Positions 12,333 through 63,850 of a stretch of 64,000 bases of DNA are shown in pieces. Origin of the DNA: a virus (Duplodnaviria > Caudoviricetes); IMG/VR virus record IMGVR_UViG_3300025449_000001, positions 2,516 to 66,515 of that record. One strand, 5' to 3'. How positions within the stretch are numbered: position 1 is the stretch's first letter; every line of letters begins with the position of its first letter. The position numbers and the translations under genes are program-made. The notes under the pieces are model-generated. The model saw only the letters and a program-made list of their open reading frames with translations. It did no database searches and was not told where the DNA came from.

Positions 12333-12362
12333 ACTAATGCAAAAAAATAGACAAATCCGCCC
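12333..12362 (-). promoter_or_regulatory. Phage late promoter motif GGGCG-N16-TGCATTAGT (copy 1)
   Basis: Exact motif, intergenic, oriented toward 12236. Confidence 0.75.
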
Positions 12363-16728: not shown

Positions 16729-16758
16729 ACTAATGCAAACATTGAGGCAAATCCGCCC
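16729..16758 (-). promoter_or_regulatory. Phage late promoter motif (copy 2)
   Basis: GGGCG-N16-TGCATTAGT exact. Confidence 0.75.
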
Positions 16759-19926: not shown

Positions 19927-19956
19927 ACTAATGCAAAAAATAGGAGGTTTACGCCC
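19927..19956 (-). promoter_or_regulatory. Phage late promoter motif (copy 3)
   Basis: GGGCG-N16-TGCATTAGT exact, upstream of portal. Confidence 0.75.
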
Positions 19957-22650: not shown

Positions 22651-22680
22651 ACTAATGCAAAAAATTATCTGTATCCGCCC
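22651..22680 (-). promoter_or_regulatory. Phage late promoter motif (copy 4)
   Basis: GGGCG-N16-TGCATTAGT exact. Confidence 0.75.
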
Positions 22681-28649: not shown

Positions 28650-29884
28650 AATACTTATCAGTATGTAGTGGTGTCGAGGCCGCAACAGTTGCTTGGCACC
28701 AAATGGGATGGAGTCCAGTCGCATTTAGTGAGATTGAACCCTTCCCATCAGCAGTATTAGCACATCATTATCCCAATGTGCCTAATCTTGGGGATATGAC
28801 TAAATATAAGGAGTGGAATTTAAATGAATCAATTGATATCCTCGTTGGAGGAACCCCATGCCAATCTTTCTCAGTCGCTGGACTCAGAAAAGGACTCGAA
28901 GATCCAAGAGGCAACCTCGCTCTCACCTATATTGGAATTCTTGACAAGTTTAAGCCAAGATGGTGTATTTGGGAAAACGTTGCAGGTGTCCTCAGTTCAA
29001 ATGGAGGACGGGATTTTGGTTCCTTCCTCGGGGCGTTGGCTGAACTCGGGTATGGGTTCGCATACCGAGTGTTGGACTCACAATTTTTCGGAGTCCCACA
29101 AAGGAGGCGTCGAGTCTTTGTTGTCGGATGTCTTAATGGAGGGATCAGTGCATCCAAGGTTTTATTTGAGCCCGAAAGCTTGTTTGGGGTTGATAAGAAG
29201 AGCAGAAGAACGAAACAAACAACTTCCGCCTATGTTAAAAGTTGCTCTCCTACGGGTGATAGAACAATCGGAACTCTCTTTGCAAGAGATTACAAAGGAA
29301 TAGGTAATCAAGATCTAACTGATGGGAGGGGGCTAGTGCTCGAACCAATTTTTTACGAGAACCATCCAAATGATTCTAGGGTTAAAGAAATGGGCAACAC
29401 TTGCACTACTGTGACATCAAGGTGGGGCACTGGTGGTGGCAATGTGCCTTTTGTTCAAAAAGTAATTGCACTGGCAGAGAATACCATTGGTCGGCAACCA
29501 CAAAATGGTGGCAATGGTAATGGGTTTACCGAGGATGGTCCAATGTACACCTTAAATGCAACTGGTGTACATGGCGTGGCTTACGCTTTTGAGCCTGGCA
29601 TTGCTAAAAGAGAGGGAGAACCTAATCGTTTTGTTGAGGAATTATCACCAACATTACGAGCTAGTATGGGAGATAATCAAGTTGCAATGGCAAATCATAT
29701 GGCCGTAAGACGATTGACTCCTATTGAAACCGAACGCCTCCAAGGCTTTCCCGATGATTACACCAATATACCATGGCGTAATAAACTAGAATCACCCGAT
29801 GGTTTACGTTATAAGGCAATGGGGAACTCGATGACTGTTAATGTAATGCGATGGATTGGTCAGCGTATCTCAATGTTCAATTAA
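28646..29884 (+). CDS. dcm: DNA (cytosine-5)-methyltransferase
   Basis: Motifs I (SVCSGVE), IV (GGTPCQSFS), VI (ENV), VIII (QRRRRVF), IX (RRLTPIETERLQGFP) and X (YKAMGNS). Confidence 0.95.
   Translation: MKYLSVCSGVEAATVAWHQMGWSPVAFSEIEPFPSAVLAHHYPNVPNLGDMTKYKEWNLNESIDILVGGTPCQSFSVAGLRKGLEDPRGNLALTYIGILDKFKPRWCIWENVAGVLSSNGGRDFGSFLGALAELGYGFAYRVLDSQFFGVPQRRRRVFVVGCLNGGISASKVLFEPESLFGVDKKSRRTKQTTSAYVKSCSPTGDRTIGTLFARDYKGIGNQDLTDGRGLVLEPIFYENHPNDSRVKEMGNTCTTVTSRWGTGGGNVPFVQKVIALAENTIGRQPQNGGNGNGFTEDGPMYTLNATGVHGVAYAFEPGIAKREGEPNRFVEELSPTLRASMGDNQVAMANHMAVRRLTPIETERLQGFPDDYTNIPWRNKLESPDGLRYKAMGNSMTVNVMRWIGQRISMFN
28824..29303 (+). CDS. Overprinted ORF resembling the M.EcoHK31I beta subunit
   Basis: Alternate frame inside dcm with AAGGAG RBS; SLLSDVL...FYLSPKACLGLIRRAEERNKQLPPMLKVAL. 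Confidence 0.65.
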   Translation: MNQLISSLEEPHANLSQSLDSEKDSKIQEATSLSPILEFLTSLSQDGVFGKTLQVSSVQMEDGILVPSSGRWLNSGMGSHTECWTHNFSESHKGGVESLLSDVLMEGSVHPRFYLSPKACLGLIRRAEERNKQLPPMLKVALLRVIEQSELSLQEITKE

Positions 29885-30382
29885 TTTGTTATTTTTTGAA
29901 ATGTTTTCTGTAGCAGTTAGTATTTGTAAGTTCCAAGGCACATGTAGCCCACAAACTTCCTTTCCTTTTAGTGGAATAATGTGGTCTACATGGTGTTGAA
30001 CACCAGTTTGCTCAGATATCTTTAAGCAATTCTTATATATTTTAGTAATTTGTTTTTTGTGATCATCTGTTAGCCATTGTGGTGTGGCATTTAATTTAGT
30101 CGCTCTTCGTTTTGCTGCGTCGGAATAAATTTTATCTTTATGATTTTTTCTGTAATTCTTTTTTATTTTTTTAATTTTACATAAATTAGTTTTTCTATAA
30201 TTTGTACTTCTTTTAATGTTTTTTAATTGTAATTTTTTAAAAATTGTTGTGCAAACCCATCTTTCTCTAAAAAATCCATTCTTTTTTAATTCTGTTAATT
30301 TATAAGTTGAAAATACATAGCCATCCTCACGAATATCTCCATATTTAAAAGGCAAATTGGTCTTTGGATTGAGTCGTTTCAT
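29870..30382 (-). CDS. HNH homing endonuclease, antisense in the early region
   Basis: HHVDHIIPLKGKEVCGLHVPWNL...N..K.N. Confidence 0.9.
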   Translation of the reverse strand: MKRLNPKTNLPFKYGDIREDGYVFSTYKLTELKKNGFFRERWVCTTIFKKLQLKNIKRSTNYRKTNLCKIKKIKKNYRKNHKDKIYSDAAKRRATKLNATPQWLTDDHKKQITKIYKNCLKISEQTGVQHHVDHIIPLKGKEVCGLHVPWNLQILTATENISKNNKLIEH

Positions 30383-30473: not shown

Positions 30474-30503
30474 ACTAATGCAAAAAGTCAAATAAATTCG
30501 CCC
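30474..30503 (-). promoter_or_regulatory. Phage late promoter motif (copy 5)
   Basis: GGGCG-N16-TGCATTAGT exact. Confidence 0.75.
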
Positions 30504-30555
30504 TAAATTTTATAATGTGGTATACTGTTGTTATTATACAACAGTTTGGAACTCC

Positions 30556-31122
30556 ATGATTGACAATGACATCCTTAGTGATTACCTACAATCATTGTAT
30601 GGTATAGAACCTCTAACAACAGAGGAAGAGCATGAACTTGCTAAAAAAATTCAACAAGGTGATGACGCAGCATTAAACAAATTGATCACCCATAACCTTC
30701 GATTTGTGGTGTATTTGGTTCGACAGATGACTGCCTGGAATCATAGTAATATGCCAGTTGAAGATATTATTGCTATTGGTAATGAGGCTTTACTGATCTC
30801 AGCAAAACGATGGAAACCCAAAAACAATTCTAAGTTTGCCACTTATGCAAAACCATTCATTCTTAAAGGTGTAAGAAGAGAACTGGATAATACAGAGAAT
30901 TTGATTCGTTTACCTATTAACATTAAACAAAACATTAAACGATTAAATTACACAGAAAGAAAATTATCTCAAATTTTAGGGCGGACTCCTAAAAACATCG
31001 AGTTAGCAGAAATGTTGGGCGTTTCTGAACAAAAAATATATGAATTAAAAAACTACATGGCAAGAGAGCCAATTTCCATTGATCACTTAAATACAGAAAG
31101 GTTTACAGATGAAGAGGATTGA
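30556..31122 (+). CDS. Sigma70-family sigma factor, regions 1.2-3 only (no region 4)
   Basis: YLQSL...LTTEEEHELA (1.2), LITHNLRFVVYL (2.1), DIIAIGNEALL..KFATYA (2.2-2.3), IRLP (2.4), LGRTPKNIELAEMLG (3); ends at EPISID..EED. Confidence 0.9.
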   Translation: MIDNDILSDYLQSLYGIEPLTTEEEHELAKKIQQGDDAALNKLITHNLRFVVYLVRQMTAWNHSNMPVEDIIAIGNEALLISAKRWKPKNNSKFATYAKPFILKGVRRELDNTENLIRLPINIKQNIKRLNYTERKLSQILGRTPKNIELAEMLGVSEQKIYELKNYMAREPISIDHLNTERFTDEED

Positions 31123-31417
31123 ACTAAATCCCGAACAAACAAAAGCTTACAATCGTTTTATATTAGCCAGAGATAGAATTAGGAAAAGTAAGAAATGGAT
31201 TAGGCCTTCTGAAATATCTCATGCAGTTGACGTGCAAGGATTGAACCATCCATTATTCGTCATCAATGACAATTATTTGGAGTACCAGGAGGCTTTTATG
31301 GAGTGGTTAAGGGTAGAGCCTCAGTTTAGGGAAAAACAGCGTATGCGAGCATCTAGAGGTGATTATGGGGTTCAAGATAATTGGGAAGAAAAAGAAACCA
31401 AGGTAGAAGAGTTATGA
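31109..31417 (+). CDS. Hypothetical protein
   Basis: 102 aa, coupled to the sigma gene. Confidence 0.6.
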   Translation: MKRIELNPEQTKAYNRFILARDRIRKSKKWIRPSEISHAVDVQGLNHPLFVINDNYLEYQEAFMEWLRVEPQFREKQRMRASRGDYGVQDNWEEKETKVEEL

Positions 31418-31614
31418 TTTCAGTCTATCCAGTTGATATTTATGACAAAAATGGTAATCTAACCAAAATAGAATATTATGATTCCGTATCCAAAGAGTTT
31501 GTTATCCAAGCGGAATGGGATGACAGAGAAGAGCAAATATCCAAAAATAGGGAGGAATTCAGAAAATGGTGCACTCTTATGCTAAAAAGACTAGGTTATG
31601 AAGTTTTGATATGA
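31414..31614 (+). CDS. Hypothetical protein
   Basis: MISVYPVDIYD...; ATGA overlap. Confidence 0.55.
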   Translation: MISVYPVDIYDKNGNLTKIEYYDSVSKEFVIQAEWDDREEQISKNREEFRKWCTLMLKRLGYEVLI

Positions 31615-31964
31615 TTGTTTTGTTTTTCTAACCATTCAGCTACTTTAATGATATCTTCATAGTTTGCATTACTTTTAATATAATTTGCCTTCATAGAAAT
31701 CCAAACAACATTACCTTCAACATATCCCAATTGGGGATTTATTCGATCCAATGAAGGAGAATTAAAATAAGCTGCACGAGGTCTTTCAGTGCTTTCCCTA
31801 ACCCACATCAAAGGGATATTAAAGACTGGGCAAAAATCTGTTGCTATAGATTTTAAATAAGATTGAGTTAAATTAAAAGGTAGGTTTTTTGCTTTTGCTC
31901 TTGCTTTAACAGTAGTAAGAATATTTTTTATTCTTCCGTTTTTAGTAGTTCCGTTCGTTGGCAT
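31596..31964 (-). CDS. His-Me finger (HNH-like, SLDRI type) endonuclease
   Basis: CPVF...PSLDRINPQLGYVEGNVVWISMKAN; start reassigned to MPTNGTT after GGAG. Confidence 0.8.
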   Translation of the reverse strand: MPTNGTTKNGRIKNILTTVKARAKAKNLPFNLTQSYLKSIATDFCPVFNIPLMWVRESTERPRAAYFNSPSLDRINPQLGYVEGNVVWISMKANYIKSNANYEDIIKVAEWLEKQNNHIKTS

Positions 31965-31993
31965 ATTGATACTCCGATAAGTAATTGATAGGT

Positions 31994-32048
31994 AGAGGGT
32001 AAGTCCTTGTATCGGCAAGGACAAGATTGTCGACATCCTGTCCCCTCT
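31994..32048 (-). ncRNA. Candidate structured 5' leader RNA (three-way junction), copy 2
   Basis: Same as copy 1 with compensatory CCTTG/CAAGG in P3. Confidence 0.55.
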
Positions 32049-32054
32049 ATATTT

Positions 32055-32084
32055 ACTAATGCAATAAATGAAAGAAATTCGCCC
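32055..32084 (-). promoter_or_regulatory. Phage late promoter motif (copy 6)
   Basis: GGGCG-N16-TGCATTAGT exact. Confidence 0.75.
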
Positions 32085-32109
32085 TCAATCCAAAAATAAA
32101 TTAAAATTT

Positions 32110-32328
32110 GTACCAGTAGTACCAGAAGTACCCCTTGTTTTTACTTTATCCTATATTTTCTTTTTTTCTTTTTTAAAAATAAAAATAAAAACGAAAGTAA
32201 GGGGTACTTCTGGTACTACTGGTACTCAACTTTTTTTATTTCTTTAATATTCAACAACTTAAAAGCACAATGTTTCACGGAATGTTTCACGAAAGGGGTA
32301 CAAATTTACAACAAAGGGGTACAAATTT
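32110..32328. repeat. Origin-like element copy B, immediately upstream of the primase-helicase gene
   Basis: Same 27-bp inverted repeat (32110-32136 / 32199-32225) and direct repeats as copy A. Confidence 0.85.
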
Positions 32329-32370
32329 CTAAAAAACGTGTATACTGATACTAAATTTAGAAAGGAACAT

Positions 32371-34695
32371 ATGGAAAAACCATCAGCACTACCAGTTAAT
32401 TTTTCAGAAATCCCTATGGAGCTGAAACAAATCCCACGATGGGTTTTATGGAACCATACCGAAGTGGGTAGTGAAGGGAATCGGCATTGGAGTAAAATCC
32501 CTTTTCAGACAGACGGCAAACAAGCAAAAGCAAATGATCCAAGCACCTGGACTGATTTTTTGTCCGTCCAGGCTGCGTATGAGAAAAATCCCAATCGATT
32601 CAGTGGCATAGGGTTTGTCTTTAGTGATGAAGACAACCTTATTGGTGTGGATTTGGATAAGTGTTATGACCAATCCAACGGTTTCACAAATGTTGCACTG
32701 CAACAAATTGCTGATTCGATTGATGGATACATGGAGGTATCGCCATCGGGTAAGGGTGTGAAGATATTCACAAGGGCAATGTTGCGTGTTGCCCACGTTG
32801 ATCATTCGATTGGATTTGAGTGCTACCCACATGGTAGGTATTTTACTGTTACGGGTCATCATATCAAAGGTGAGATTCCAACGACAGAGCAGAACATTGT
32901 GGATATTATTCCAGAGCGAATTGCCCACATCACTGGTGATGATTTTGCAGACTATAAACCACCCGTGCCCGAGTATGACTTGGCAAGAGTGGAGAGTGAA
33001 CTATTATCCCAATTATCACCCGAATGTGGGTATTTAGATTGGTTGAATATTGGACAAGCACTACATCACCAATTCAAAGGTGATTTAGAGGCGTGTGATT
33101 TGTGGGATAGGTGGTCGTATGCTGATGGTAATTATCCTAAATATGCAGAGTCGGGCAAGTATTCATGCACGGAGAAGTGGAGGTCTTTTAGACGAACTGC
33201 TGGTTCAACATTTACATTACGTTCACTTATTTTCAAAGTCAACCAAAAGCAAAGAAAGGAGGCATTGGAGCGTGGTGAAATCATTTTAGATAATGGTGCG
33301 ATGAACCATGCCAGGACATTTCTAGATGGTATGTATTCTAGTGAAGAAGGATACACATTGGTTCATTACGCTGATGAGTTTTATTCCCACGTCAACACCC
33401 ACTATGAAATTATTGAAGAGTTAACAGTCCGTTCTAAACTATATACCTTTTTGGATAAGTGTAAGAAGAGTGGGAAGAAAGGTGCGTTGGAGGCGTTTAA
33501 TCCATCACCAGCCAGTGTGTCTGCGGCCTTGGATGCTATTAAGTCACTTACCCATTTACCAAACCATGCCAACACAAAGCCACCGATTTGGTTAGAGAAG
33601 TATGCAGACAACCAACCCGATTCTAAGGATTTGATTTCCCTACAAAATGGCATATTTCACCTTAAAGACTATACTGTTCTGCCACATTCGTTAGGGTTCT
33701 TTACGCCCAACTCACTACCATTCCCCTATGATGCAAATGCAAAATGCCCCGAGTGGATGAAGTTTTTGAATTCAGTTTGGTCAGAAGATCAAGAATCGAT
33801 TGATTGTTTGCAAGAGATGATGGGTTATATTTTGAGTGGTGACACACGTCAACAAAAGTTTTTTAATATTATTGGCCCACGTCGTTCGGGTAAGGGGACG
33901 ATTAACAAAGTGCTGGTGGAGTTGTTAGGACAACACAATACAGTGGCACCACAATTGGAGGAACTCTGCGATACTTTCGGTCTTCAACCTTGGCTTGGCA
34001 AGTTACTCGCTTCTTTTACTGATGCAAGAGCACCTGAACGAAACCGCAGCGCGGTTGTGTCTCAGCTGCTACGTATTGTCGGTGGCGATACAGTTACTGT
34101 TAATCGAAAGAACAAGGAGGCATGGAACGGGTACCTGCCGACACGAATAGTTGTGTATTCAAACGAGGCATTACAGTTAACAGAAAACTCAAACGCTTTG
34201 ACGGGTCGTATGATTGTAATTAAGATGACAAAATCCTTTTTTGGTGATGAGGATACCGAACTGTATCCAAGATTGGCGAAGGAGTTGTCGGGTATTTTTA
34301 ACTGGGCCATGGAAGGGTTAAAACGTAGACTGGCAAGAGGTGGGCATTTTATTCAACCAAAATCAGGCAAACACCTATTAGAGTTGATGGCTGAGTTAGG
34401 TAACCCCATTGGTTCGTTTGTGGAGGATGTGTTAGAATTCCATCCAACCGACTCTGTCCCCAAAGATGATGTGTTTGCATGTTATAAGAGATGGGCATTG
34501 TCAAAATCGATACCCCCTGGAACGGAGCTTGCGTTTAAGAGAAGGTTTTTGGCTGCGACACAAGAGCATCAGATTGATGTGGATGTTGATCGTAGTAATG
34601 GTGGTCGAGTGCATATTTACAGAGGGGTGCGTTTGAATGAGAAAGCGAAAAGATATGTAGAGAGTATCCAATCTTTTACGGAGGATGTGTTTTGA
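32371..34695 (+). CDS. Primase-polymerase fused to PriCT-2 and D5-like SF3 helicase
   Basis: GVDLD..EVSPSGKGVKIF (AEP), WLNIGQALH..WDRWS (PriCT-2), IIGPRRSGKGT (Walker A). Confidence 0.9.
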   Translation: MEKPSALPVNFSEIPMELKQIPRWVLWNHTEVGSEGNRHWSKIPFQTDGKQAKANDPSTWTDFLSVQAAYEKNPNRFSGIGFVFSDEDNLIGVDLDKCYDQSNGFTNVALQQIADSIDGYMEVSPSGKGVKIFTRAMLRVAHVDHSIGFECYPHGRYFTVTGHHIKGEIPTTEQNIVDIIPERIAHITGDDFADYKPPVPEYDLARVESELLSQLSPECGYLDWLNIGQALHHQFKGDLEACDLWDRWSYADGNYPKYAESGKYSCTEKWRSFRRTAGSTFTLRSLIFKVNQKQRKEALERGEIILDNGAMNHARTFLDGMYSSEEGYTLVHYADEFYSHVNTHYEIIEELTVRSKLYTFLDKCKKSGKKGALEAFNPSPASVSAALDAIKSLTHLPNHANTKPPIWLEKYADNQPDSKDLISLQNGIFHLKDYTVLPHSLGFFTPNSLPFPYDANAKCPEWMKFLNSVWSEDQESIDCLQEMMGYILSGDTRQQKFFNIIGPRRSGKGTINKVLVELLGQHNTVAPQLEELCDTFGLQPWLGKLLASFTDARAPERNRSAVVSQLLRIVGGDTVTVNRKNKEAWNGYLPTRIVVYSNEALQLTENSNALTGRMIVIKMTKSFFGDEDTELYPRLAKELSGIFNWAMEGLKRRLARGGHFIQPKSGKHLLELMAELGNPIGSFVEDVLEFHPTDSVPKDDVFACYKRWALSKSIPPGTELAFKRRFLAATQEHQIDVDVDRSNGGRVHIYRGVRLNEKAKRYVESIQSFTEDVF

Positions 34696-34919
34696 GACAA
34701 TTTGTGCGTAGAAACGACTTTACAAAAATATTTGGTGGAATTGGTAGACGCCGCACCAAAAAATCAATAAACTATATCTTAAAGCCTAAAAGATTTCATT
34801 TAATGATGATTAGGCGTGGTCATATTGGTTGGCGTAACAAAACATGGAGTAGGTTGTCTTTATTAAAAATTCGTATAAGATTTGGTGTATATCCACCAGG
34901 TAAAAAGTTTAGGAGGTAG
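34692..34919 (+). CDS. Basic hypothetical protein
   Basis: R/K-rich 75 aa, overlaps the primase stop. Confidence 0.45.
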   Translation: MRQFVRRNDFTKIFGGIGRRRTKKSINYILKPKRFHLMMIRRGHIGWRNKTWSRLSLLKIRIRFGVYPPGKKFRR

Positions 34920-34920
34920 T

Positions 34921-35082
34921 ATGTATAAACTGTATGATGAAGATGGCGAGTATATGCGCTGGGTTAAGCGTAGAGAAGAAGCACAGGCTTTATTAGCAAC
35001 ACACCAAGGGTGGAAGGTTAAATATGTTAAAATTCCACGTAAGACAATTGATTTAAACCAATTTGAGGAGGCACCATTTTGA
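34921..35082 (+). CDS. Small hypothetical protein
   Basis: AGGAGG RBS; MYKLYDEDG...FEEAPF. Confidence 0.65.
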   Translation: MYKLYDEDGEYMRWVKRREEAQALLATHQGWKVKYVKIPRKTIDLNQFEEAPF

Positions 35083-35270
35083 TTGATCGTTTATATTTAG
35101 GGTTTGGCATTGTCACCCTGTTGTTTTGTATGTTTATTATATTTTTAACCGAACTGTCTAACAGAGAGACTACCAGACTCTTAAAGGCGTGTGAGTTAGC
35201 AGAAATAAGTGCCGACTTTACACCGCAAGAGAAGGCGCAGTGCAGAATATTAAGGAGGCAAGTGAGATGA
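35079..35270 (+). CDS. Small membrane protein
   Basis: N-terminal hydrophobic helix; CELAEISADF. Confidence 0.55.
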   Translation: MIDRLYLGFGIVTLLFCMFIIFLTELSNRETTRLLKACELAEISADFTPQEKAQCRILRRQVR

Positions 35271-35611
35271 CAGCAAATGAACTAGCAGACGCAATGGGAA
35301 TTCGTGCATTAATTCGCAGACAAGCAACGAGCCGTAAAAGTGTGCAAGAAGGGGCTGACGATAGGCTTGCTGACCAATTAGAACAAGCTGCCACCATGCT
35401 ACGTCAACAAGCCAAAGAAATTGAGGAATTGAAATTGCGTATTAGTCAACTTTTAGAAACGCAAGATTACTTGTATAAAAAACATGATTCAGACAAAACT
35501 GAAATAGAAACATTGAAAGAAAAATCAGAACATTGGGAAGAAAAATACAGAGATGCAATAGCAGATTTAAGTATTGAAAATTATTGGAGGATGGGAAATG
35601 ACAGCAAATGA
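35267..35611 (+). CDS. Coiled-coil hypothetical protein (MTANELAD type)
   Basis: AGGAGG RBS; ATGA overlap. Confidence 0.55.
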   Translation: MTANELADAMGIRALIRRQATSRKSVQEGADDRLADQLEQAATMLRQQAKEIEELKLRISQLLETQDYLYKKHDSDKTEIETLKEKSEHWEEKYRDAIADLSIENYWRMGNDSK

Positions 35612-36494
35612 ACTAGCTGATATAAATGAGTGGTCTTGTTGTGCTCATAGTAAACAAGTTTCTGCCATGCTACGCCAACAAGAAGACCGAATAAACGTAT
35701 TGGAAGCTAATCAAAAGATAGAGTTAAATATAAAAGAAAAAGCATTGCAATACATAGCGGAATTGGAAAAAGAAATTGAGGAGTTAAAAAATGATAAAAA
35801 TATTGACCAAATGAGCAAAAATGATAAAAATATTGACCAAATGAGCAAGCCTATTGCTTGGATGGACAAAAATGGATATGTTTATGGTAAACACGAAACA
35901 CGACCAATAGAAGCTGATATTCCTCTTTACACCCATTCTAACACCCAATCACACCCAATTGAACCAATAGCAATGCGTTATGACTTTGATGGTTATGGAT
36001 ACAAATACATTGACTCAGGCTCAGGGAGCGATTGGCAAACGAGAGAGAAGGGAGAGTTTCTTTACACCAAGCCATTCTTTAGTCAAAAACCTGTTGCTAT
36101 GATGGTAAAAATTGATGGGTTTGATAAACCTGAGTTTACTACAACCTGTAGTTCTGCTGCACTAAAACATCCTAACTATACTGCATTGTATGACCATCCA
36201 CCCATAGCTTTTGCTGAATTAGAAGCTGGGGAGAGTATTCCTCTTTACGAACATTCTGAAGATAGAGATTCTGCTATCTACGCAACTGGCTATTGGAATG
36301 GTATTCATAAAGCTAAAGAAAAAAATGAAACCTTAGACACAAGGTCTTACTTGATTGGTAGATATGATGGTTTGCGTGAAATAAGTGATGAGGAAATACT
36401 AGCCCTATGGGTAAAGAAAAACAATCTAAATGGTGCTAAAGATATTTTAGATTTTGCTAGAGATTTATTAAAGAAAGCGAGTGAGAATGATTAG
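35598..36494 (+). CDS. Mosaic hypothetical protein (MTANELAD N-terminus, repeated KPVA/PLYT modules)
   Basis: Repeated KP(I/V)A...LY(T/D)(H/K)P modules; internal duplication KNDKNIDQMS x2. Confidence 0.55.
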   Translation: MTANELADINEWSCCAHSKQVSAMLRQQEDRINVLEANQKIELNIKEKALQYIAELEKEIEELKNDKNIDQMSKNDKNIDQMSKPIAWMDKNGYVYGKHETRPIEADIPLYTHSNTQSHPIEPIAMRYDFDGYGYKYIDSGSGSDWQTREKGEFLYTKPFFSQKPVAMMVKIDGFDKPEFTTTCSSAALKHPNYTALYDHPPIAFAELEAGESIPLYEHSEDRDSAIYATGYWNGIHKAKEKNETLDTRSYLIGRYDGLREISDEEILALWVKKNNLNGAKDILDFARDLLKKASEND

Positions 36495-36684
36495 AAAAAA
36501 AGCATTGCTATTGCAAAAAAGATTTAAAAGATTTAATAAATATAATGACAAAGCCAAATTAGAAATGGCTACAGAAGTTGTTGAAATTTTACCAATACTT
36601 GTTGAGCAAATTAATTATTTAGATAAGGTAAATACAGAAATGTATCATAAATTAAAATTTTATATGAAAGCGAGTGAGAAATGA
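36487..36684 (+). CDS. Small hypothetical protein
   Basis: Coupled overlap; ends KASEK. Confidence 0.5.
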   Translation: MIRKKALLLQKRFKRFNKYNDKAKLEMATEVVEILPILVEQINYLDKVNTEMYHKLKFYMKASEK

Positions 36685-36862
36685 TTTTTATGTTTTATAT
36701 GTTTTATATTTATGTAATGGGAATAGTCTGTGGTTATTTTATTGCTAAATTAATAGCACTAAACGAGGAGGATAAATGATATTAAATTTCGTATTACTAA
36801 TTATAGCTTTTACAGTTTGTTTGTGTGCATTGATATGGATGATTGAAAAGGTAACGAAATGA
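36681..36862 (+). CDS. Two tiny hydrophobic ORFs (36681-36779 and 36776-36862)
   Basis: Manual translation MIFMFYMF... (32 aa) and MILNFVLL... (28 aa), chained by ATGA overlaps. Confidence 0.45.
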
Positions 36863-37464
36863 TTGAAAACACTTTACCTTATTATGAAGTTGACGCTGGC
36901 CATTTTAGTGTTAAAATAAAAGTATGCTTTTCTGATAATGCATTTCAACAAGCTATAAGAGATTCTAAAATAACAACTAGGCATAATGCTTTAGATTTAG
37001 GTATTGCGGAATCACATTATATTATTCAAGATGGTACGCTGCATTCTATGTTGGCTATTGTATTTAATTATGATGAAATGAAAAAGTTAGATGCTTTGGA
37101 GCGTATGGGAATTATTTACCATGAAGTATCCCATACAACCACCCATGTATTTCAGTACATTGGTGAAGACGAATCTAAAATTGGTGATGAGTCTCGATCA
37201 TATTTAGGTGAACATATTTTTAAACAAGTATTTGCAGTATATGCGACAGAGGATGAGACACGTGAGAGTGCTAGAAAAAGAAATAGAACAGCATCTGGTG
37301 AAAAAAATAAAGCAATCGTCGGGGCTTTGTTACAAATGGCTTTCGACAGTGACGGGAGTGCCGGATCGGATAGTGTTTCTGAATCAAAAAGTATACCTAG
37401 TGGAACTAAAAACACAAAGCGGGATACTAAGCCCAAGACAAACGCTCGTATTCGCAGAACTTGA
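36859..37464 (+). CDS. Putative zincin-type metalloprotein (HExxH)
   Basis: IIYHEVSHTTTH...E..SY; C-terminus overlaps VRR-NUC. Confidence 0.6.
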   Translation: MIENTLPYYEVDAGHFSVKIKVCFSDNAFQQAIRDSKITTRHNALDLGIAESHYIIQDGTLHSMLAIVFNYDEMKKLDALERMGIIYHEVSHTTTHVFQYIGEDESKIGDESRSYLGEHIFKQVFAVYATEDETRESARKRNRTASGEKNKAIVGALLQMAFDSDGSAGSDSVSESKSIPSGTKNTKRDTKPKTNARIRRT

Positions 37465-37546
37465 AAAAGCAGGCTTTCCAGTATATGTGTTAAAATCTAA
37501 AGAAGATGTGGAGGCATTTGTTGAGTCAAGCCAAAGAAACATATAA
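37253..37546 (+). CDS. VRR-NUC domain nuclease
   Basis: EKEIE...GVPDRIVF...VELK...LSPRQ. Confidence 0.9.
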   Translation: MRHVRVLEKEIEQHLVKKIKQSSGLCYKWLSTVTGVPDRIVFLNQKVYLVELKTQSGILSPRQTLVFAELEKAGFPVYVLKSKEDVEAFVESSQRNI

Positions 37547-38318
37547 TCTTCGTGCGAGGTATGGAATTACAGCAGAGGATAAGAAAGAAAAAATACAAAG
37601 TCAAGGAAATGTCTGTGCTATTTGTAAACAAACATTTAAAAACAAATTAGATACACACATGGATCATTGCCATACAACAAATGTATTACGAGGTGTGCTT
37701 TGTGGTAAATGTAACCTAGGCTTAGGGAAGTTTAATGACTCCCCTCAACTTTTAAGATACGCAGCAATTTATTTGGAATACCATGCTAAACAAAACCAAC
37801 CTTCATCCATACCAACTGGAAGTCATCAAGAAAGCCAAGACATTGCCTCATATGGGCCTGTTTATGGAGCCAGGACTCGGGAAGACTGTGACGGCGCTCA
37901 CCATCATATCGGAGAGCCCGAAGGGCACGACACTGATAGTAGCCCCCAAGAGAGTAGCGGAGTCAGTATGGGCTCAGGAGTGTCAGAAGTGGAAACATTT
38001 GGCACATCTGAAAGTAGCAAAGATCATGGGCTCGCCAAAGAACAGACTGAGCGCATTAGAAAGTTTGTCGAACATATATGTAGTGAATCTAGAGAACTTG
38101 GTATGGCTATTAGAGCAGAACAAAAAGTTCGACTACCTCATTATCGACGAATCAAGTCGTTTCAAAGATTCCTCGACAAAAAGGTTCAAGGCACTCAAGA
38201 AACACCTAAAATCGTTCAAGAGGCGGCTAATCCTAACTGGTACACCATCTCCACAGAGCCTGCAAGACCTTTGGAGTCAAGTTGGTATCCTAGACCTAGG
38301 CTCCAGATTAGAGACTAG
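37506..38318 (+). CDS. Recombination endonuclease VII-like protein with long C-terminal overlap of the helicase gene
   Basis: YGIT...CAIC...MDHCH....RGVLCGKCNLGLG. Confidence 0.8.
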   Translation: MWRHLLSQAKETYNLRARYGITAEDKKEKIQSQGNVCAICKQTFKNKLDTHMDHCHTTNVLRGVLCGKCNLGLGKFNDSPQLLRYAAIYLEYHAKQNQPSSIPTGSHQESQDIASYGPVYGARTREDCDGAHHHIGEPEGHDTDSSPQESSGVSMGSGVSEVETFGTSESSKDHGLAKEQTERIRKFVEHICSESRELGMAIRAEQKVRLPHYRRIKSFQRFLDKKVQGTQETPKIVQEAANPNWYTISTEPARPLESSWYPRPRLQIRD

Positions 38319-39111
38319 CCTAACAAAGTTTAGGGATAAGTACATGGACCCAGGTCAAAGGAATAGGCACACCGGCGTGGTTTATAATTGGGTTTTAAAA
38401 AATGGTGCAGTGCAACAAATACAAGAAAAGATTAGTGATATTTGTTTTTCGTTAAAGGCAGAAGATTATTTACAACTGCCAACACTAACCAAGTTGTACC
38501 AAACGATTGAGATAGATGATAACGTAAGGAAGCAATATGACGAACTTAGAAAAGACATGGTCCTTAGTACAGATACGGGGAACATCACAGCTACAACAGC
38601 AGCGACGTTGGCGGGCAAGTTACTCCAGTTCACCAGCGGCGCGGTATATACAGAAGATGGAGGGACGCAGGAAGTACACAGTGCTAAGTTGGAACGTCTT
38701 GAATCGATCATGGAAGAGTCTTCTTCCCCGACGCTCGTATTCTATCATTTCAAACACTCCCTTCAACGAATACGCCTTGCTTTCCCAGAGGCGGTGGTGC
38801 TGGACGACGACAACATTGAAGCGTGGCGTCGTGGTGAGATTCGTATGCTCCTTGCCCATCCCCAAAGTGGGGGAATCGGGATCAATTTACAGTGCAACGT
38901 TGGAGAGACAGCCCAAACAATCTGGTTTGATTTACCATGGAGTTCAGAAAACTACATCCAAGCCAACGCAAGAATATACCGCCAAGGGCAAGAAAAACCG
39001 GTTCTCATACACCATTTAACAGTAGCAAACAGTATTGATGAAAAAGTAGTAAAAGTATTAGAAGGTAAGATTAACATTCAAGAGGCACTATTAGACGCAC
39101 TAAAATTATGA
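37783..39111 (+). CDS. SNF2-family helicase
   Basis: MEPGLGKT, IIDESS, LTGTP, QANARIYRQGQ. Confidence 0.92.
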   Translation: MLNKTNLHPYQLEVIKKAKTLPHMGLFMEPGLGKTVTALTIISESPKGTTLIVAPKRVAESVWAQECQKWKHLAHLKVAKIMGSPKNRLSALESLSNIYVVNLENLVWLLEQNKKFDYLIIDESSRFKDSSTKRFKALKKHLKSFKRRLILTGTPSPQSLQDLWSQVGILDLGSRLETSLTKFRDKYMDPGQRNRHTGVVYNWVLKNGAVQQIQEKISDICFSLKAEDYLQLPTLTKLYQTIEIDDNVRKQYDELRKDMVLSTDTGNITATTAATLAGKLLQFTSGAVYTEDGGTQEVHSAKLERLESIMEESSSPTLVFYHFKHSLQRIRLAFPEAVVLDDDNIEAWRRGEIRMLLAHPQSGGIGINLQCNVGETAQTIWFDLPWSSENYIQANARIYRQGQEKPVLIHHLTVANSIDEKVVKVLEGKINIQEALLDALKL

Positions 39112-39413
39112 CAGCAAAAATACAAGCAGTGGCACCAAGATTATCTGACGAAGATCCAGATCCAATAGAACAAGACGAAACAGAGGGCATATCATCAAAC
39201 ATGGTGGAGGGGACAGGCTGGCTACTATGGGACGTAGAAGATATAATAGAAATAAAACATTTAATTGCAACTCGAATGCCAGAAAAATCCAGAGTTATTT
39301 TAGATGCTTTTTTACAGGGTTTGATGTATAATGATATCAATGTAAGCGAAAAATATTGGCGGTATCATTTCAATGCGGGTATTGAATTTATAAAGAAAGA
39401 ACTTAAACTATGA
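39108..39413 (+). CDS. Stand-alone sigma70 region 4-like HTH protein
   Basis: Acidic N-terminal linker, then MPEKSRVILDAFLQGLMYNDINVSEKYWRYHFNAGIEFIKKEL, which resembles the LxxrerxIl..G.sy.EI..vs...vr.....ai.kLk pattern. Confidence 0.5.
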   Translation: MTAKIQAVAPRLSDEDPDPIEQDETEGISSNMVEGTGWLLWDVEDIIEIKHLIATRMPEKSRVILDAFLQGLMYNDINVSEKYWRYHFNAGIEFIKKELKL

Positions 39414-40345: not shown

Positions 40346-40554
40346 GCACCGAAACAGATCCATTAGACACCTTTGTTGTTACTTTGCAGTACACGTTAAA
40401 AGATATTAATCTATTGATTAACAGTATGAATCGCCCAGTTGAAACACCGGTTATGCAGTGGGCAAATTTTATCAATGACATCCACCTACAAATTGAACCT
40501 CAAGTGAAAGAACTAAATGAATCTAAGACAACTACTAAAGAAAGCGGGAGTTAG
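40342..40554 (+). CDS. Hypothetical protein
   Basis: Coupled ORF. Confidence 0.55.
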   Translation: MSTETDPLDTFVVTLQYTLKDINLLINSMNRPVETPVMQWANFINDIHLQIEPQVKELNESKTTTKESGS

Positions 40555-40747
40555 TAACGACATCATCAAAGAAGTCGAGCGTAAAGCGGCTAAAACATCA
40601 GCCGAAATGGAAGCAGAACATCGAGAAAAAGCAATGGCAATGACTAAAATGATGTTGAATGATGTCATTCGTGCCAATCAAGCAGCACAAGAAGCCAGTC
40701 CGAAAGAACCGCCCTTTAAAAAACGTGTGATTATTACACCAGATTAA
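40517..40747 (+). CDS. Hypothetical protein
   Basis: MNLRQLLKKAG...; ends at the late promoter. Confidence 0.55.
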   Translation: MNLRQLLKKAGVSNDIIKEVERKAAKTSAEMEAEHREKAMAMTKMMLNDVIRANQAAQEASPKEPPFKKRVIITPD

Positions 40748-40777
40748 GGGCGGTTTTTGACCATTTTTTGCATTAGT
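40748..40777 (+). promoter_or_regulatory. Phage late promoter motif (copy 7, plus strand)
   Basis: GGGCG-N16-TGCATTAGT exact. Confidence 0.75.
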
Positions 40778-41778: not shown

Positions 41779-41797
41779 TATATATTTTTAATTTGGG

Positions 41798-41826
41798 TTG
41801 ACTTATGTATATTTTTGCATTAGTAT
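41798..41826 (+). promoter_or_regulatory. Host sigma70-type promoter overlapping a phage -10 motif
   Basis: TTGACT-N17-TAGTAT; contains TGCATTAGT with GGGTT at the GGGCG position. Confidence 0.65.
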
Positions 41827-41856
41827 ATATACATATCAACCGAATTGAAAGAATAT

Positions 41857-43011
41857 ATGACAACTCACGCTCTTTTAAGTGCCTCCAGTTCCAAAAGGTG
41901 GCTAATGTGCACTCCTTCAGCAAGACTTGAAGCAACTCTTCCAGAACCTAAAAGAAGTACCAAGGGGATTGATTTCTCTGCGGAGGGTACATTGGCTCAC
42001 ACATTAAGTGAAATACGCTTAAAACTCTATTTTAATCAAATTAACCATGAAGAATATGCAAAAGAATACGAAGAGGTCAAATCGCATGACATATATCGAA
42101 ATTATACGGAAGAGGAAAGGCTTGATTTCGAGGATAACGTCGATAATTATGTTCTTTATATTCGTAGCCAAATTGGTGAAGGGGATACGCCGCTATTTGA
42201 GCAACGTGTGGACTTCTCTGATTGGGTTCCTGATGGCTTTGGTACGGCCGATGTGGTTATACTTTCTGAGCGCACCATTCATATCTACGACCTCAAGTTT
42301 GGAAGAGGGATCCCCGTTTCAGCCGTCGACAACAGCCAACTCAGACTCTACGCCCTCGGTGCGTATGCCAAATTCAAAGAAGATTACCCCAATATCAAGG
42401 AAGTCAGCTACACCATCCATCAACCACGACTTGACAGTATTAGCACAGATGGGACAACCATCGAAAAACTCCTCGATTGGGCAAAATATTATGTTAGCCA
42501 AAAAGCCAAGAAGGCGTGGGCAGGGTCAGGCGAGTTTCTCCCAGGTGAATGGTGCCAATTCTGTAAAGCAAAAGCCCAGTGTCGTGCCAGATCAGACTTC
42601 AACACCGAACTCGCCAAACAAGAATTCAAAGAACCCCCGCTCCTCAGTGAAGAAGAACTCAACGACGTCCTCGCCAAAGCGCAAGACTTAAAAACATGGG
42701 CGAACGATGTAGAAGAGTTTGCCCTTAATCGAGCGATTGAAGAGAACAAAATACCAAAGGGGTATAAGTTAGGCACCACAACAACACATCGTAAGATATT
42801 AGATAACCAACTTGCTGCGGCAGTATTGGTTGAACATGGATTATCAGAGTCATTGTTGTGGGAACCGCCAAAACTTAAATCACTTGCAACATTAGAAAAG
42901 ATTGGTCCCAAAGGCAAAGTAGCGGCTTGGTTGGGTGATTTAGTTATTCGTCCAGAAGGACAGCCCAAGTTAGTTCGTATTAAAGAAACAGCAAAGGATG
43001 ACTTTAAATGA
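41857..43011 (+). CDS. DUF2800 PD-(D/E)xK exonuclease (Cas4-like)
   Basis: HALLSASSSKRW..C, FGTADVVI..DLKFG..QLRLYALG, GEWCQFCKAKAQC. Confidence 0.88.
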   Translation: MTTHALLSASSSKRWLMCTPSARLEATLPEPKRSTKGIDFSAEGTLAHTLSEIRLKLYFNQINHEEYAKEYEEVKSHDIYRNYTEEERLDFEDNVDNYVLYIRSQIGEGDTPLFEQRVDFSDWVPDGFGTADVVILSERTIHIYDLKFGRGIPVSAVDNSQLRLYALGAYAKFKEDYPNIKEVSYTIHQPRLDSISTDGTTIEKLLDWAKYYVSQKAKKAWAGSGEFLPGEWCQFCKAKAQCRARSDFNTELAKQEFKEPPLLSEEELNDVLAKAQDLKTWANDVEEFALNRAIEENKIPKGYKLGTTTTHRKILDNQLAAAVLVEHGLSESLLWEPPKLKSLATLEKIGPKGKVAAWLGDLVIRPEGQPKLVRIKETAKDDFK

Positions 43012-43157
43012 ACGCTTGGTTAATTGGAATGATTGGTGTAGTTTATTTTTTCGTAGCAATACAATTTTTAATGAAAGGCCAAGTAGGCATGGGAATCTCA
43101 TTCTTAGGGTATGCCCTAGGAAATGTAGGTTTAGTCTTAGTAACATTACAATCATAA
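43008..43157 (+). CDS. Small two-helix membrane protein (49 aa)
   Basis: Manual translation MNAWLIGMIGVVYFFVAIQFLMKGQVGMGISFLGYALGNVGLVLVTLQS. Confidence 0.65.
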   Translation: MNAWLIGMIGVVYFFVAIQFLMKGQVGMGISFLGYALGNVGLVLVTLQS

Positions 43158-43168
43158 GCGAGGCACCT

Positions 43169-43426
43169 ATGCAAGTAAGTTGTTTTGGAACCACCCTTGA
43201 AGTACCAGAACAGTTAATTAATTCTTATATTAAAGATTTTGATGGATTACCTGGAAGTGGGCAAAGAGAGTCTGTGTTGCATCTACGCAACAGTGTTTAT
43301 GAAGTATTTGACTACATAGCAGAAGACCCCGAAGCCCTTGAAGAATATACCTATAGGCATCAATTCATTAACGCATTGGCAGTACACAGAGCATTAGAAG
43401 TACATGGTATCTTGCACGATGCATAA
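43169..43426 (+). CDS. Hypothetical protein
   Basis: Start reassigned to MQVSCFG after GAGG. Confidence 0.6.
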   Translation: MQVSCFGTTLEVPEQLINSYIKDFDGLPGSGQRESVLHLRNSVYEVFDYIAEDPEALEEYTYRHQFINALAVHRALEVHGILHDA

Positions 43427-43439
43427 AAACGTGTATAAT
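43412..43439 (+). promoter_or_regulatory. Host sigma70-type promoter for ssb
   Basis: TTGCAC-N16-TATAAT with an extended TG. Confidence 0.55.
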
Positions 43440-43504
43440 AGATTTATGGGTAGACGAACTAGCCCCAATTGAAGTCTGGTTCTAACGTTAATAGGAGTTT
43501 TAAA

Positions 43505-44020
43505 ATGCAGTCAAACAAAGTAAAAGTTGTAACTGGTAAAGTACGTTTTTCATATGCTAATGTGTTTGTTCCAAAAGCAGCAATGGAAGGTAGCACACCA
43601 AAGTATTCTGTATCAATTCTGATCCCAAAATCAGATAAAGAAGGTGTTGCTAAACTTCAAAAAGCTTTTGAAGAATGTAAAACAAGTAATGCTGCATTCT
43701 TTGGTGGTGCTGTACCAAAGTTGTTAAAAGGTGGTTTACGTGATGGTGATGCTGAACGTGAAGATGAGGCATATGCTGGTCATTATTTTATCAATGCCAA
43801 CTCAGCACAAAAGCCTGAGATTGTAGATGCACAACGTGAAGAGTTGTTTGACCAAAGCGAGTTTTATAGTGGTTGCTATGGCCGTGCTTCCATCACTTTC
43901 TATCCATACAATGCACAAGGTTCTAAGGGTATTGCATGTGGTTTAAATAACTTGCAAAAGTTGGAAGATGGTGAAAAGTTAGGTGGTGGTTCTTCTGCAG
44001 CATCTGATTTCGCAGACTAA
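43505..44020 (+). CDS. ssb: DUF2815 single-stranded DNA-binding protein (Enc34 type)
   Basis: VRFSYANVF..KYSVSILIPK..LRDGD..YSGCYGRAS..GLNNLQKLEDGEKL..DF. Confidence 0.88.
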   Translation: MQSNKVKVVTGKVRFSYANVFVPKAAMEGSTPKYSVSILIPKSDKEGVAKLQKAFEECKTSNAAFFGGAVPKLLKGGLRDGDAEREDEAYAGHYFINANSAQKPEIVDAQREELFDQSEFYSGCYGRASITFYPYNAQGSKGIACGLNNLQKLEDGEKLGGGSSAASDFAD

Positions 44021-44256
44021 GTTGTAACACGGCTTAGGGTAACGGCCTAAGTTCTTTGTAGTAATGGGTAAAATGTTTATTGGAGCGCTGAAAAACCTTA
44101 GCGATGAGAGATTGAAGCCGAGTCGTGGCTAAAGCACCTGCCATTTAAGCAACCGCCGACGGGTAGTAATAAACAAAGTAGCCCACCTTGTAGCACGGGG
44201 AGTGTCCGTAGAAACTGCGGCCTCCCTTTTTTATCAACCCAAACCGAGAATAATAA

Positions 44257-46131
44257 ATGGATCAATACAGACAATATATAGCCGCTAGTCGCTATGCAAG
44301 ATTCCTTGACGAAAAAGGAAGACGTGAAACTTGGGAAGAAACTGTTCAAAGATATATAAATTATGTGTTTGACAGAACATCGGCAATTAAAAATAATATT
44401 GAATTGAAAGAAGAGTTATATAATGCCATATTAAAAATGGAATGTGTACCTTCAATGCGCGCAGTAATGACTGCGGGAAAGGCTGCAGATCGTGATAACA
44501 CCAGTATCTACAATTGCTCGTATTTACCAGTCGATGACCCAAAATCGTTCGACGAAGCTATGTACATCTTGCTCTGCGGTACTGGCGTCGGATTCTCAGT
44601 TGAGTCAAAATACATCAATCAATTGCCCGAAGTGCCAGACAACCTTTTTGCAAGCGAACACGCCATCAGAGTGCACGACTCTAAAGAAGGATGGGCAAAA
44701 GCCCTTCGACTTATCATTGCACACCTATATGCAGGCGAAATCCCAAAATGGGACACTTCTGGAGTTAGACCTGCCGGAGCACGACTCAAAACATTTGGTG
44801 GAAGAGCTTCAGGGCCGAAACCATTAGAAGATTTATTTGAATTTACAATTAACTTGTTTAAAAACGCAAAGGGTCGTAAGCTTCATTCATTAGAGTGCCA
44901 TGACTTAATGTGTAAAATTGGTGAGGTTGTAGTTGTGGGTGGCGTTCGCCGCTCGGCTATGATCTCATTATCAGACCTAGACGATGAAAGGATTCGACAT
45001 GCTAAAGCTGGTCCGTGGTGGGAAACTGCACCTCACCGTGCACTCGCAAATAATAGCGCGGTTTATAATGAAACACCTACCGTTGGAAAGTTTATGGAAG
45101 AGTGGTTATCTTTATACAATTCACATAGCGGAGAAAGAGGGATATTCAACCGTGAGGCTGCAAAAAAAACCGTGGAAAAATACTCTCACCGTAATCCTAA
45201 CTTTGAATTCGGAACTAACCCCTGCTCAGAAATCATTCTTCGACCATACCAATTTTGTAATCTTACGGAGGTAGTAATTAGACATGACGACACAAGAGAA
45301 ACTCTCCTGCGCAAGGTGCGGCTCGCAGCTATCCTTGGCACCATCCAAGCCACTTTTACAAAGTTCCCCTATCTGCGGAAGGTGTGGCAGAGAAATACTG
45401 AAGATGAACGGCTTTTGGGTGTCTCCCTCACTGGCATTTATGACAACAAACTCACCTGCACCCAAGGAGGACAATTAAATGTACTACTCGAAGAGCTCAG
45501 AGAAGAGGCTAGACGAACAAACGAAGAATTTGCTGGACTGCTTGGAATCCCTGTATCAGCTGCAATTACATGTGTTAAGCCATCGGGCACAGTTTCACAA
45601 CTTGTCGACTCGGCATCGGGGATTCACCCGAGACATTCTAAGTATTATATCCGACGAGTGCGAGGAGATTCAAAAGACCCTCTCACCCAATTCTTAATCC
45701 AACAAGGCATACCCAATGAACCATGTGTTTATAAACCCGAACAAACAACCGTATTCTCTTTCCCCCAACGAGCGCCTGACGGACTCACTCGAGAGGACGT
45801 TGATTCAATATCACACCTCGAATTATGGCTCACCTACCAGCGTAAATTTACAGAACATAAACCTTCGATTACTGTTTCAGTGGAAGAAAAAGATTGGCCT
45901 AAAGTTGGTGCATGGGTGTGGGAAAATTTTAATGAACTCTCTGGAGTCTCTTTTCTTCCTTATTCAGAGCATAGTTATAGACAAGCACCTTATGAACAGT
46001 GTACTGAAGAAGAGTATTTGGCATTAAAAGCTCAAGTACCAATAATTGATTGGATATTGTTTAAAGAAGAAACTGACAATGTGGAAGGAAGTCAAATGCT
46101 CGCTTGTGTTGCTGGAGTCTGTGAAATATAG
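44257..46131 (+). CDS. nrdJ: Class II (B12-dependent) ribonucleotide reductase
   Basis: SRYAR..RRETW, YNCSY, TNPCSEI..CNLTE, TCVKPSGTVSQL, C-terminal CVAGVCEI; no NrdB partner gene. Confidence 0.9.
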   Translation: MDQYRQYIAASRYARFLDEKGRRETWEETVQRYINYVFDRTSAIKNNIELKEELYNAILKMECVPSMRAVMTAGKAADRDNTSIYNCSYLPVDDPKSFDEAMYILLCGTGVGFSVESKYINQLPEVPDNLFASEHAIRVHDSKEGWAKALRLIIAHLYAGEIPKWDTSGVRPAGARLKTFGGRASGPKPLEDLFEFTINLFKNAKGRKLHSLECHDLMCKIGEVVVVGGVRRSAMISLSDLDDERIRHAKAGPWWETAPHRALANNSAVYNETPTVGKFMEEWLSLYNSHSGERGIFNREAAKKTVEKYSHRNPNFEFGTNPCSEIILRPYQFCNLTEVVIRHDDTRETLLRKVRLAAILGTIQATFTKFPYLRKVWQRNTEDERLLGVSLTGIYDNKLTCTQGGQLNVLLEELREEARRTNEEFAGLLGIPVSAAITCVKPSGTVSQLVDSASGIHPRHSKYYIRRVRGDSKDPLTQFLIQQGIPNEPCVYKPEQTTVFSFPQRAPDGLTREDVDSISHLELWLTYQRKFTEHKPSITVSVEEKDWPKVGAWVWENFNELSGVSFLPYSEHSYRQAPYEQCTEEEYLALKAQVPIIDWILFKEETDNVEGSQMLACVAGVCEI

Positions 46132-46154
46132 TTTTTCCTTCGTGGTTGGGTTTT

Positions 46155-46179
46155 GGGGGCTTGCGAGCCCCCTTTTTTT
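46155..46179 (+). terminator. Intrinsic terminator
   Basis: GGGGGCT-TGCG-AGCCCCC-TTTTTTT. Confidence 0.85.
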
Positions 46180-56665: not shown

Positions 56666-56695
56666 ACTAATGCAAAAAATAAGGTGTTTTCGCCC
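56666..56695 (-). promoter_or_regulatory. Phage late promoter motif (copy 8)
   Basis: GGGCG-N16-TGCATTAGT exact. Confidence 0.75.
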
Positions 56696-63820: not shown

Positions 63821-63850
63821 ACTAATGCAAAAAACTAGGTATTTTCGCCC
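63821..63850 (-). promoter_or_regulatory. Phage late promoter motif (copy 9)
   Basis: GGGCG-N16-TGCATTAGT exact. Confidence 0.75.

Follow-up and report, generated by a model that had tools for sequence, protein, structure and literature searches.

A truncated phage sigma factor and a separate domain 4-like protein as candidate halves of a two-polypeptide sigma factor

How can a phage sigma factor that stops short of region 4 serve promoters that carry a strictly conserved upstream box at fixed spacing? The question is raised by the 64,000-nucleotide stretch analysed here (the window; positions 2,516 to 66,515 of IMG/VR record IMGVR_UViG_3300025449_000001), which covers almost the entire genome of an uncultured phage of ~65 kb. 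The stretch encodes a truncated sigma factor, here called sigma-N, and, 8 kb away on the same strand, a small protein of 101 amino acids, here called ORF101 after its open reading frame (ORF). A sequence-only reading of the same DNA had proposed that the two are halves of one sigma factor, acting as an AND-gate timer of late transcription. We favor the first part of this proposal, a two-polypeptide sigma composed of sigma-N and ORF101 and cut in region 3.2, and consider its chance of being correct to be a little better than even; the timer is a different matter, to which we return below.

According to the hypothesis that we favor, sigma-N would associate with core RNA polymerase and recognize the invariant 9-mer TGCATTAGT at the extended -10 position (TGn plus hexamer). 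The acidic N-terminal segment of ORF101 would replace the second half of the region 3.2 linker, and its domain 4-like helix-turn-helix (HTH) would sit on the beta-flap and recognize GGGCG, which would then span about -36 to -31, with a spacer of 17-18 bp before the -10 hexamer. The early block that holds both genes is presumably transcribed by the host holoenzyme, and sigma-N together with ORF101 would redirect the host RNA polymerase to about ten phage promoters, with T7-like replication genes, structural, packaging and lysis genes, and two endonuclease genes as targets. What we infer is that the two proteins pair, that they bind RNA polymerase, and how the promoter elements are divided between them. 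The system would be a small one, consisting of two genes and one 30-bp promoter.

The ORF of sigma-N extends from 30517 to 31122 (+), and the start codon shared with its homologues (ATG at 30556) yields 188 amino acids. Pfam recognizes Sigma70_r1_2 (PF00140; residues 5-38, 31.9 bits, cut-off 22), Sigma70_r2 (PF04542, core binding and -10 recognition; residues 43-104, 29.1 bits, cut-off 24) and Sigma70_r3 (PF04539; residues 126-177, 38.2 bits, cut-off 25.3), with no region 4 match at E<=1, and the only PHROG family matched is the general sigma factor family 351 (1.5e-30). When its profile was aligned by hhalign with those of nine full-length sigmas, the probability was 99.9% and the alignment spanned RpoD residues 337-514. 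Since the alignment covers this part of RpoD, and the last residue corresponds to about RpoD 520, sigma-N terminates within region 3.2, the sigma finger.

The end point is not peculiar to the window. Sigma-N ends ~16 residues past an EPIS(I/L)D motif, and all members of a 21-member alignment, reaching down to 46% identity, end 14-18 residues past the same motif with an acidic tail. A word-indexed search of 5.8 billion proteins found 546 metagenomic homologues, and the 120 listed among them are 186-221 amino acids long, contain the same three domains and lack region 4. Searching for longer relatives gave one match, an unrelated full-length sigma of 31% identity, and no close full-length relative. 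Judged from these comparisons, the truncation is a stable family trait and not a broken gene, and sigma-N is a sigma-70 family protein of group 1/2-like type, regions 1.2 and 3 being traits of groups 1-3.

The arrangement GGGCG-N16-TGCATTAGT is found in nine exact copies in the window, along with one variant carrying two mismatches, and every copy points into genes. At <=2 mismatches 0.24 matches would be expected by chance, and none of 100 shuffles reached 10 matches. The fixed spacing of the upstream box had been noted before, and it is upheld here, with N16 in all nine exact copies. When 23 sites were compared, taken from the window and two relatives, conservation was >=90% for GGGCG, for TTTGCATTAGT and for a T-A step located 6-7 nt downstream. 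This geometry fits a -35 element, a 17-18 bp spacer, a TGn-hexamer extended -10 and a T/A start site; in our reading of the sequence GGGCGR would occupy -36 to -31, TG -15/-14, ATTAGT -12 to -7, and the conserved A would be +1. Relatives whose sigma is only 47-51% identical have GGGC(N)-N16-TGCAT(A/T)(A/G)GT, and they also retain the (S/T)EKYWRYH helix of ORF101; the GGGC box and its spacing are thus as conserved as that helix. Covariation between the helix and the -35 box was considered as a further line of evidence and given up, as both are conserved across clades and offer no informative variation.

ORF101, the candidate for the missing region 4, was examined by its predicted fold. The ATG of its gene overlaps the stop codon of an SNF2-type helicase gene. 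In the AlphaFold2 model residues 1-35 are disordered and residues 41-100 are folded (pLDDT, the per-residue model confidence, 85-97) into helices at 43-55, 59-69 and 81-98, the first HTH helix being short and not called as a helix. The best Foldseek matches of the model are almost all sigma domain 4, at weak E-values, and re-alignment gives Z 7-8.4. In an unbiased comparison with 48,161 representative PDB chains, ranks 1-25 are all sigma domain 4 (Z 8.5-6.0, root-mean-square deviation 2-4 A, 55-69 residues, the whole domain covered), the top-ranked chains including sigma-H, CnrH, sigma-E region 4 on -35 DNA, BldN, SigL, SigD4, SigR4, SigK, SigB and SigF. Residues ~40-101 are accordingly ranked with, and predicted to adopt, a sigma domain 4-like fold with a C-terminal HTH, so that the acidic linker-like start followed by a sigma4-like pattern, which the sequence-only reading had described, is supported.

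At the level of sequence the support for ORF101 as region 4 is weak but consistent. About 590 homologues of 92-114 amino acids were found, two of which are named 'sigma24 family protein' by the JGI (Joint Genome Institute). The best-conserved part is N-terminal (P10, R11, L12, S13, D14, E15, D18, E21, Q22 and D23), where a conserved acidic motif, PRLSDE-D-E-D, is located; across the wider family E21 never varies, and L12 and D18 almost never do. In the putative recognition helix, K82, W84, R85, Y86 and H87 are kept family-wide. Pfam Sigma70_r4_2 (PF08281) is matched by 8 of 31 close and 4 of 20 wider relatives (best E 2.5e-4), and the neighbours of ORF101 in a protein atlas include region 4 clusters (score 0.91). 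The order of the parts, an acidic stretch, about 30 residues, a 4.1-like helix and then the HTH, parallels regions 3.2 to 4.2 of full-length sigmas. By eye, DED-P-D-P-I-E-Q-D of ORF101 resembles DEDSHLGDFIED, a likeness between acidic segments and not a test.

The two genes also travel together. A sigma-based survey covered 42 IMG/VR loci, 17 of them with enough downstream span, and ORF101 is present in 17/17 of the latter, on the same strand and either directly or about 1.4 kb past the SNF2-type helicase gene; in one apparent exception, L004, ORF101 lies just beyond the fetched stretch. In the reverse direction, an ORF101-based survey revealed the truncated sigma upstream in 12 loci with about 10 kb of upstream sequence and 11 kb upstream in L094, while the contigs that show no sigma end too early to tell. 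In the distant clade represented by L071, where ORF101 is about 26% identical, a sigma that stops at the same point is found 4.7 kb upstream. The genes that had been joined in the original two-component proposal thus occur together in every record with enough span, distant clade included.

Several of our results weigh against a two-polypeptide sigma. The ORF101 of the window itself has no Pfam region 4 match. When the ORF101 family was compared with the nine sigmas by hhalign, it was placed at RpoD 551-611, the expected register, with a probability of only 2.7%, and because of that low value the alignment was kept out of the proof. The same comparison against a single full-length sigma gave nothing useful. 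PDB sequences searched with the ORF101 profile (hmmsearch) yielded no sigma, only chance kinase matches at E >=0.39. A Z of about 8 is middling for small helical domains. Both ATTAGT and CATTAG are candidates for the -10 hexamer. The two genes belong to one syntenic phage family, in which co-occurrence is expected for any two core genes. Three further points that count in the same direction, the absence of a fused form, the position of a TATAG sequence and the acidity of ORF101, are best considered together with the alternatives that they favor.

ORF101 could be a free-standing activator with a sigma4/LuxR-like HTH, which would bind GGGCG in the manner of a class II activator overlapping the -35 and recruit RNA polymerase carrying sigma-N while staying off the beta-flap. 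We regard this as unlikely, though deserving of serious consideration. ORF101 shares its fold class with LuxR/FixJ effector domains, though at lower Z (<=6), and chains with this type of HTH rank below sigma domain 4, which fills ranks 1-25 ahead of all activator HTHs. No naturally fused sigma-ORF101 protein turned up when 1.84 billion representatives were searched with a profile, as would suit an activator; the search returned 33 clusters, all short except P0253 (229 amino acids, left uninspected) and the chimeric-looking P0254 (129 amino acids). If the downstream TATAG were the -10 element, GGGCG would be centred near -43, a position typical of activators. Sigma-N may not even need a domain 4, because region-4-less sigma70, in work by Kumar et al. 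from 1993, is said to be able to work at extended -10 promoters. Against an activator, the acidic motif, the about 30 residues and the 4.1-like helix mirror the layout of regions 3.2 to 4.1, and the exact N16 of every copy is as expected of a reader fixed rigidly to RNA polymerase.

A second alternative, which we consider improbable, is suggested by the charge of ORF101. Taken as a whole the protein is strongly acidic, with an HTH domain close to neutral, a combination that a flap binder without DNA-binding activity, such as the very acidic gp33 of T4, could also show. ORF101 would then be a gp33-like co-activator on the beta-flap, and GGGCG would be read by other means, act through DNA shape, or be the remnant of an upstream terminator. 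In the relative G003 (L056-L059) hairpins of the type GGGCG...CGCCC with a T run behind them do occur just before TGCATTAGT, many GGGCG boxes serving as their 5' arm, and these sites look like overlapping terminator-promoter units. In the window, by contrast, none of the nine boxes has a complementary arm or forms a hairpin. The T4 late promoters consist of a -10 element only, without a -35 consensus (PMC12867686), whereas the -35-like box described here is invariant. Nor does conservation of the putative recognition-helix residues across the family sit well with a protein that reads no DNA, and ORF101 has no PHROG match at E<=0.01, gp33 families included.

That ORF101 is unrelated to sigma-N, being an early-gene or host transcription regulator while sigma-N acts alone on a long TGCATTAGT element, is likewise improbable, since it leaves the invariant GGGCG at fixed spacing unexplained and the early block yielded no further conserved HTH, even if -35-independent use is plausible because relatives have TGCATTAGT sites without GGGCG.

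These sites in relatives deserve a closer description. In L028 (16757), L004 (12342), L010 (10047) and L012 (10307), the sequence directly in front of ORF101, or of a gene that has been inserted ahead of it, contains TGCATTAGT without GGGCG, and two inverted CGCCC boxes spaced by 12 nt precede the site. Such a site may be a -35-independent, autoregulated promoter. One could go further and suppose a sigma that is cut in the sigma finger with an acidic stretch on each half, in which sigma-N alone serves the -35-less TGCATTAGT promoters and sigma-N plus ORF101 serve the GGGCG promoters. This would amount to a built-in cascade in which ORF101 is a separable, possibly autoregulated, module of specificity and timing. 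The arrangement in L028, where a GGGCG-less TGCATTAGT lies directly upstream of ORF101 with the two inverted CGCCC boxes flanking it, provides a hint in this direction, and we hold such a cascade to be possible but rather doubtful. A second class of promoter was also seen in relatives, with GTG(G/A)AAT in place of GGGCG about 17 nt upstream of TGCATTAGT. It does not occur in the window; examples are L004 4722, L010 2592, L012 2854, L013 11424 and L028 10339, among others, about 0.9 kb past the sigma gene.

Returning to the two-polypeptide sigma, the arrangement of the genes bears on when its halves would be made. Sigma-N and ORF101 are encoded in the same rightward early block (about 23-40.7 kb), in which no rightward phage-type promoter was found before 40748 and no convincing terminator between the two genes. 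A scan of the block for consensus promoters and terminators was uninformative (71 promoter-like sites against 72.7 expected). Because the block is shared, without a rightward phage promoter or a convincing terminator to divide it, the layout does not suggest expression of the two halves at different times, and the AND-gate timer of the sequence-only reading finds no footing in it. The accompanying claim, that the second half is co-expressed with replication genes, is not supported for the T7-like replication genes: these sit downstream of phage-type promoters and would therefore be targets of the system. Since the so-called late promoters also precede the T7-like replication module, the sigma regulon would be middle and late, not late only. 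The site at 41795-41824, which precedes this module, carries GGGTTGAC in place of GGGCG, so that TTGACT-N17-TAGTAT can also be read as a host-type promoter. In G002 and G003, two of the relatives, the equivalent site is embedded in a terminator-like hairpin (GGGGC...GCCCC).

Other candidates for the partner of sigma-N were sought. Six-frame searches with PF08281 and PF04545 of the five relatives that are >=97% complete by CheckV found no other shared region 4, and they failed to detect ORF101 as well. A 56-amino-acid region 4.2-like mini-gene was rejected as a competing partner, being seen in relative G003 alone and absent from the window and all other loci retrieved; it is located at L018 15324-15494 (= G003:C1:17515-17682, minus strand) and matches Sigma70_r4 (PF04545) with 26.6 bits, above the cut-off, over the HTH part only. 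The ORF at 31109-31417 (+), of 102 amino acids and conserved in nearer relatives, was likewise rejected, as its AlphaFold2 model (pLDDT 71) has no sigma-like or clear PDB match and it went undetected in the most distant clades. A 14-nt overlap with the 3' end of the sigma gene makes translational coupling of the two probable. The product of this ORF has invariant NHPL, VEP and GDY motifs and may act as an accessory protein of RNA polymerase or of the sigma. The window was also searched with a home-made region 4 profile, which gave no significant match. Its best match (E 0.84, non-significant) was a 76-amino-acid ORF at 40517-40747 (+), the first 25 residues of which are faintly HTH-like and which ends at the first rightward phage promoter.

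The position of the two genes and of the promoters within the phage genome is summarized in Table 1. Terminase, portal, head, tail and lysis functions form leftward operons, and the rightward block at ~23-48 kb contains a cytosine methylase, the sigma, a primase-helicase, a VRR-NUC-type nuclease, the SNF2-type helicase and ORF101. Further to the right of ORF101 are an exonuclease, a gp2.5-like single-stranded DNA-binding protein (SSB), a ribonucleotide reductase (RNR) and a family A DNA polymerase, which make up the T7-like replication module (41845-48127). The sigma gene lies between two leftward endonuclease-type genes, at 29870-30382 (-) and 31596-32036 (-), each preceded by a phage promoter of its own; the two have in common a 111-nt upstream stretch with 81% identity (repeat D16). 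Of the relatives in IMG/VR, three with direct terminal repeats (64-66 kb) are rated complete, and two that are linear (63 and 68 kb) have a rated completeness of 97-100%. GenBank phages include no close relative (megablast, zero matches), and the best match of sigma-N to a GenBank phage protein has 36% identity.

Table 1. Coordinates in the window of the two candidate sigma genes and of the phage promoters.
Feature	Position	Strand	Basis or sequence
Phage promoter, before head-gene operon	12333..12362	-	GGGCG-N16-TGCATTAGT
Phage promoter	16729..16758	-	GGGCG-N16-TGCATTAGT
Phage promoter, before portal gene	19927..19956	-	GGGCG-N16-TGCATTAGT
Phage promoter, before packaging genes	22651..22680	-	GGGCG-N16-TGCATTAGT
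Phage promoter, before leftward HNH-type gene adjoining sigma gene	30474..30503	-	GGGCG-N16-TGCATTAGT
Sigma-N, 188 amino acids, regions 1.2, 2 and 3	30556..31122	+	Pfam, PHROG 351, hhalign
Phage promoter, before second leftward endonuclease-type gene	32055..32084	-	GGGCG-N16-TGCATTAGT
ORF101, candidate sigma-C, 101 amino acids	39108..39413	+	alignments, AlphaFold2 model, PDB chain comparison
First rightward phage promoter, 1.3 kb past ORF101, marks end of early block	40748..40777	+	
Variant promoter, before exonuclease, SSB, RNR and DNA polymerase genes	41795..41824	+	GGGTT replaces GGGCG, overlaps TTGAC
Phage promoter, before gene for 1500-amino-acid structural protein	56666..56695	-	GGGCG-N16-TGCATTAGT
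Phage promoter	63821..63850	-	GGGCG-N16-TGCATTAGT

Should the two-polypeptide sigma be confirmed, the region 3.2 linker, which passes through the active-site cleft and RNA exit channel of RNA polymerase, need not be a continuous chain. The way in which a large family of uncultured ~65 kb phages (>500 sequences) reprograms the host RNA polymerase would likewise be explained, and the design of AND-gate circuits could make use of a natural sigma that is orthogonal, comes in two parts and has a defined bipartite promoter.

To our knowledge, split sigmas are known from a handful of systems (T4, SPO1, SigO-RsoA and Tn916), all of them based on minimal or ECF-like (extracytoplasmic function) sigmas. 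Our literature search, of incomplete coverage, found no paper on the ORF101/sigma-N family or on a cut point in region 3.2. The gp55/gp33 pair of T4 has been described as 'a split sigma factor' (PMC12867686; bioRxiv 10.64898/2026.10.01.756105). T4 late transcription, which uses gp55, gp33 and the gp45 clamp, resembles the present case in that a phage sigma without domain 4 and a separate small acidic protein in the place of domain 4 (predicted here) are encoded by separate genes. The differences are that gp55 is a region 2-like core only, whereas sigma-N keeps regions 1.2, 2 and 3, and that the T4 late promoters lack any counterpart of the -35-like GGGCG. ORF101 is predicted to have a true domain 4 HTH, unlike gp33, to which no sequence similarity was detected with PHROG. 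Moreover, the PHROG-annotated replication genes of the window showed no sliding clamp, whereas T4 has gp45.

In SigO-RsoA (YvrI-YvrHa of B. subtilis), Sig7-Sig8 of Tn916 and gp33/gp34 of SPO1, the reading of the -10 and -35 elements is divided between two RNA polymerase-associated polypeptides, and we propose the same division here. Those systems are ECF-like (group 4) and combine a region 2 protein with a region 4 protein encoded by adjacent genes. Sigma-N, in contrast, is group 1/2-like and ends inside region 3.2, and its gene is separated by 8 kb from that of ORF101. Single-chain group 1/2 sigma-70 factors of the RpoD type provide the remaining parallel. Sigma-N aligns with RpoD over residues 337-514, the parts of ORF101 follow in the order of an RpoD-like sigma, and the promoters have the same layout of -35, spacer, TGn and -10. 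RpoD-like sigmas are nevertheless encoded by one gene, as opposed to the two genes found here, the first HTH helix of ORF101 is shortened, and the promoter sequences (GGGCG, and ATTAGT or CATTAG) are unlike TTGACA and TATAAT. Relative to the known split sigmas, what would be new is that a primary-like sigma with regions 1.2, 2 and 3 is the one divided, and that the division falls in region 3.2.

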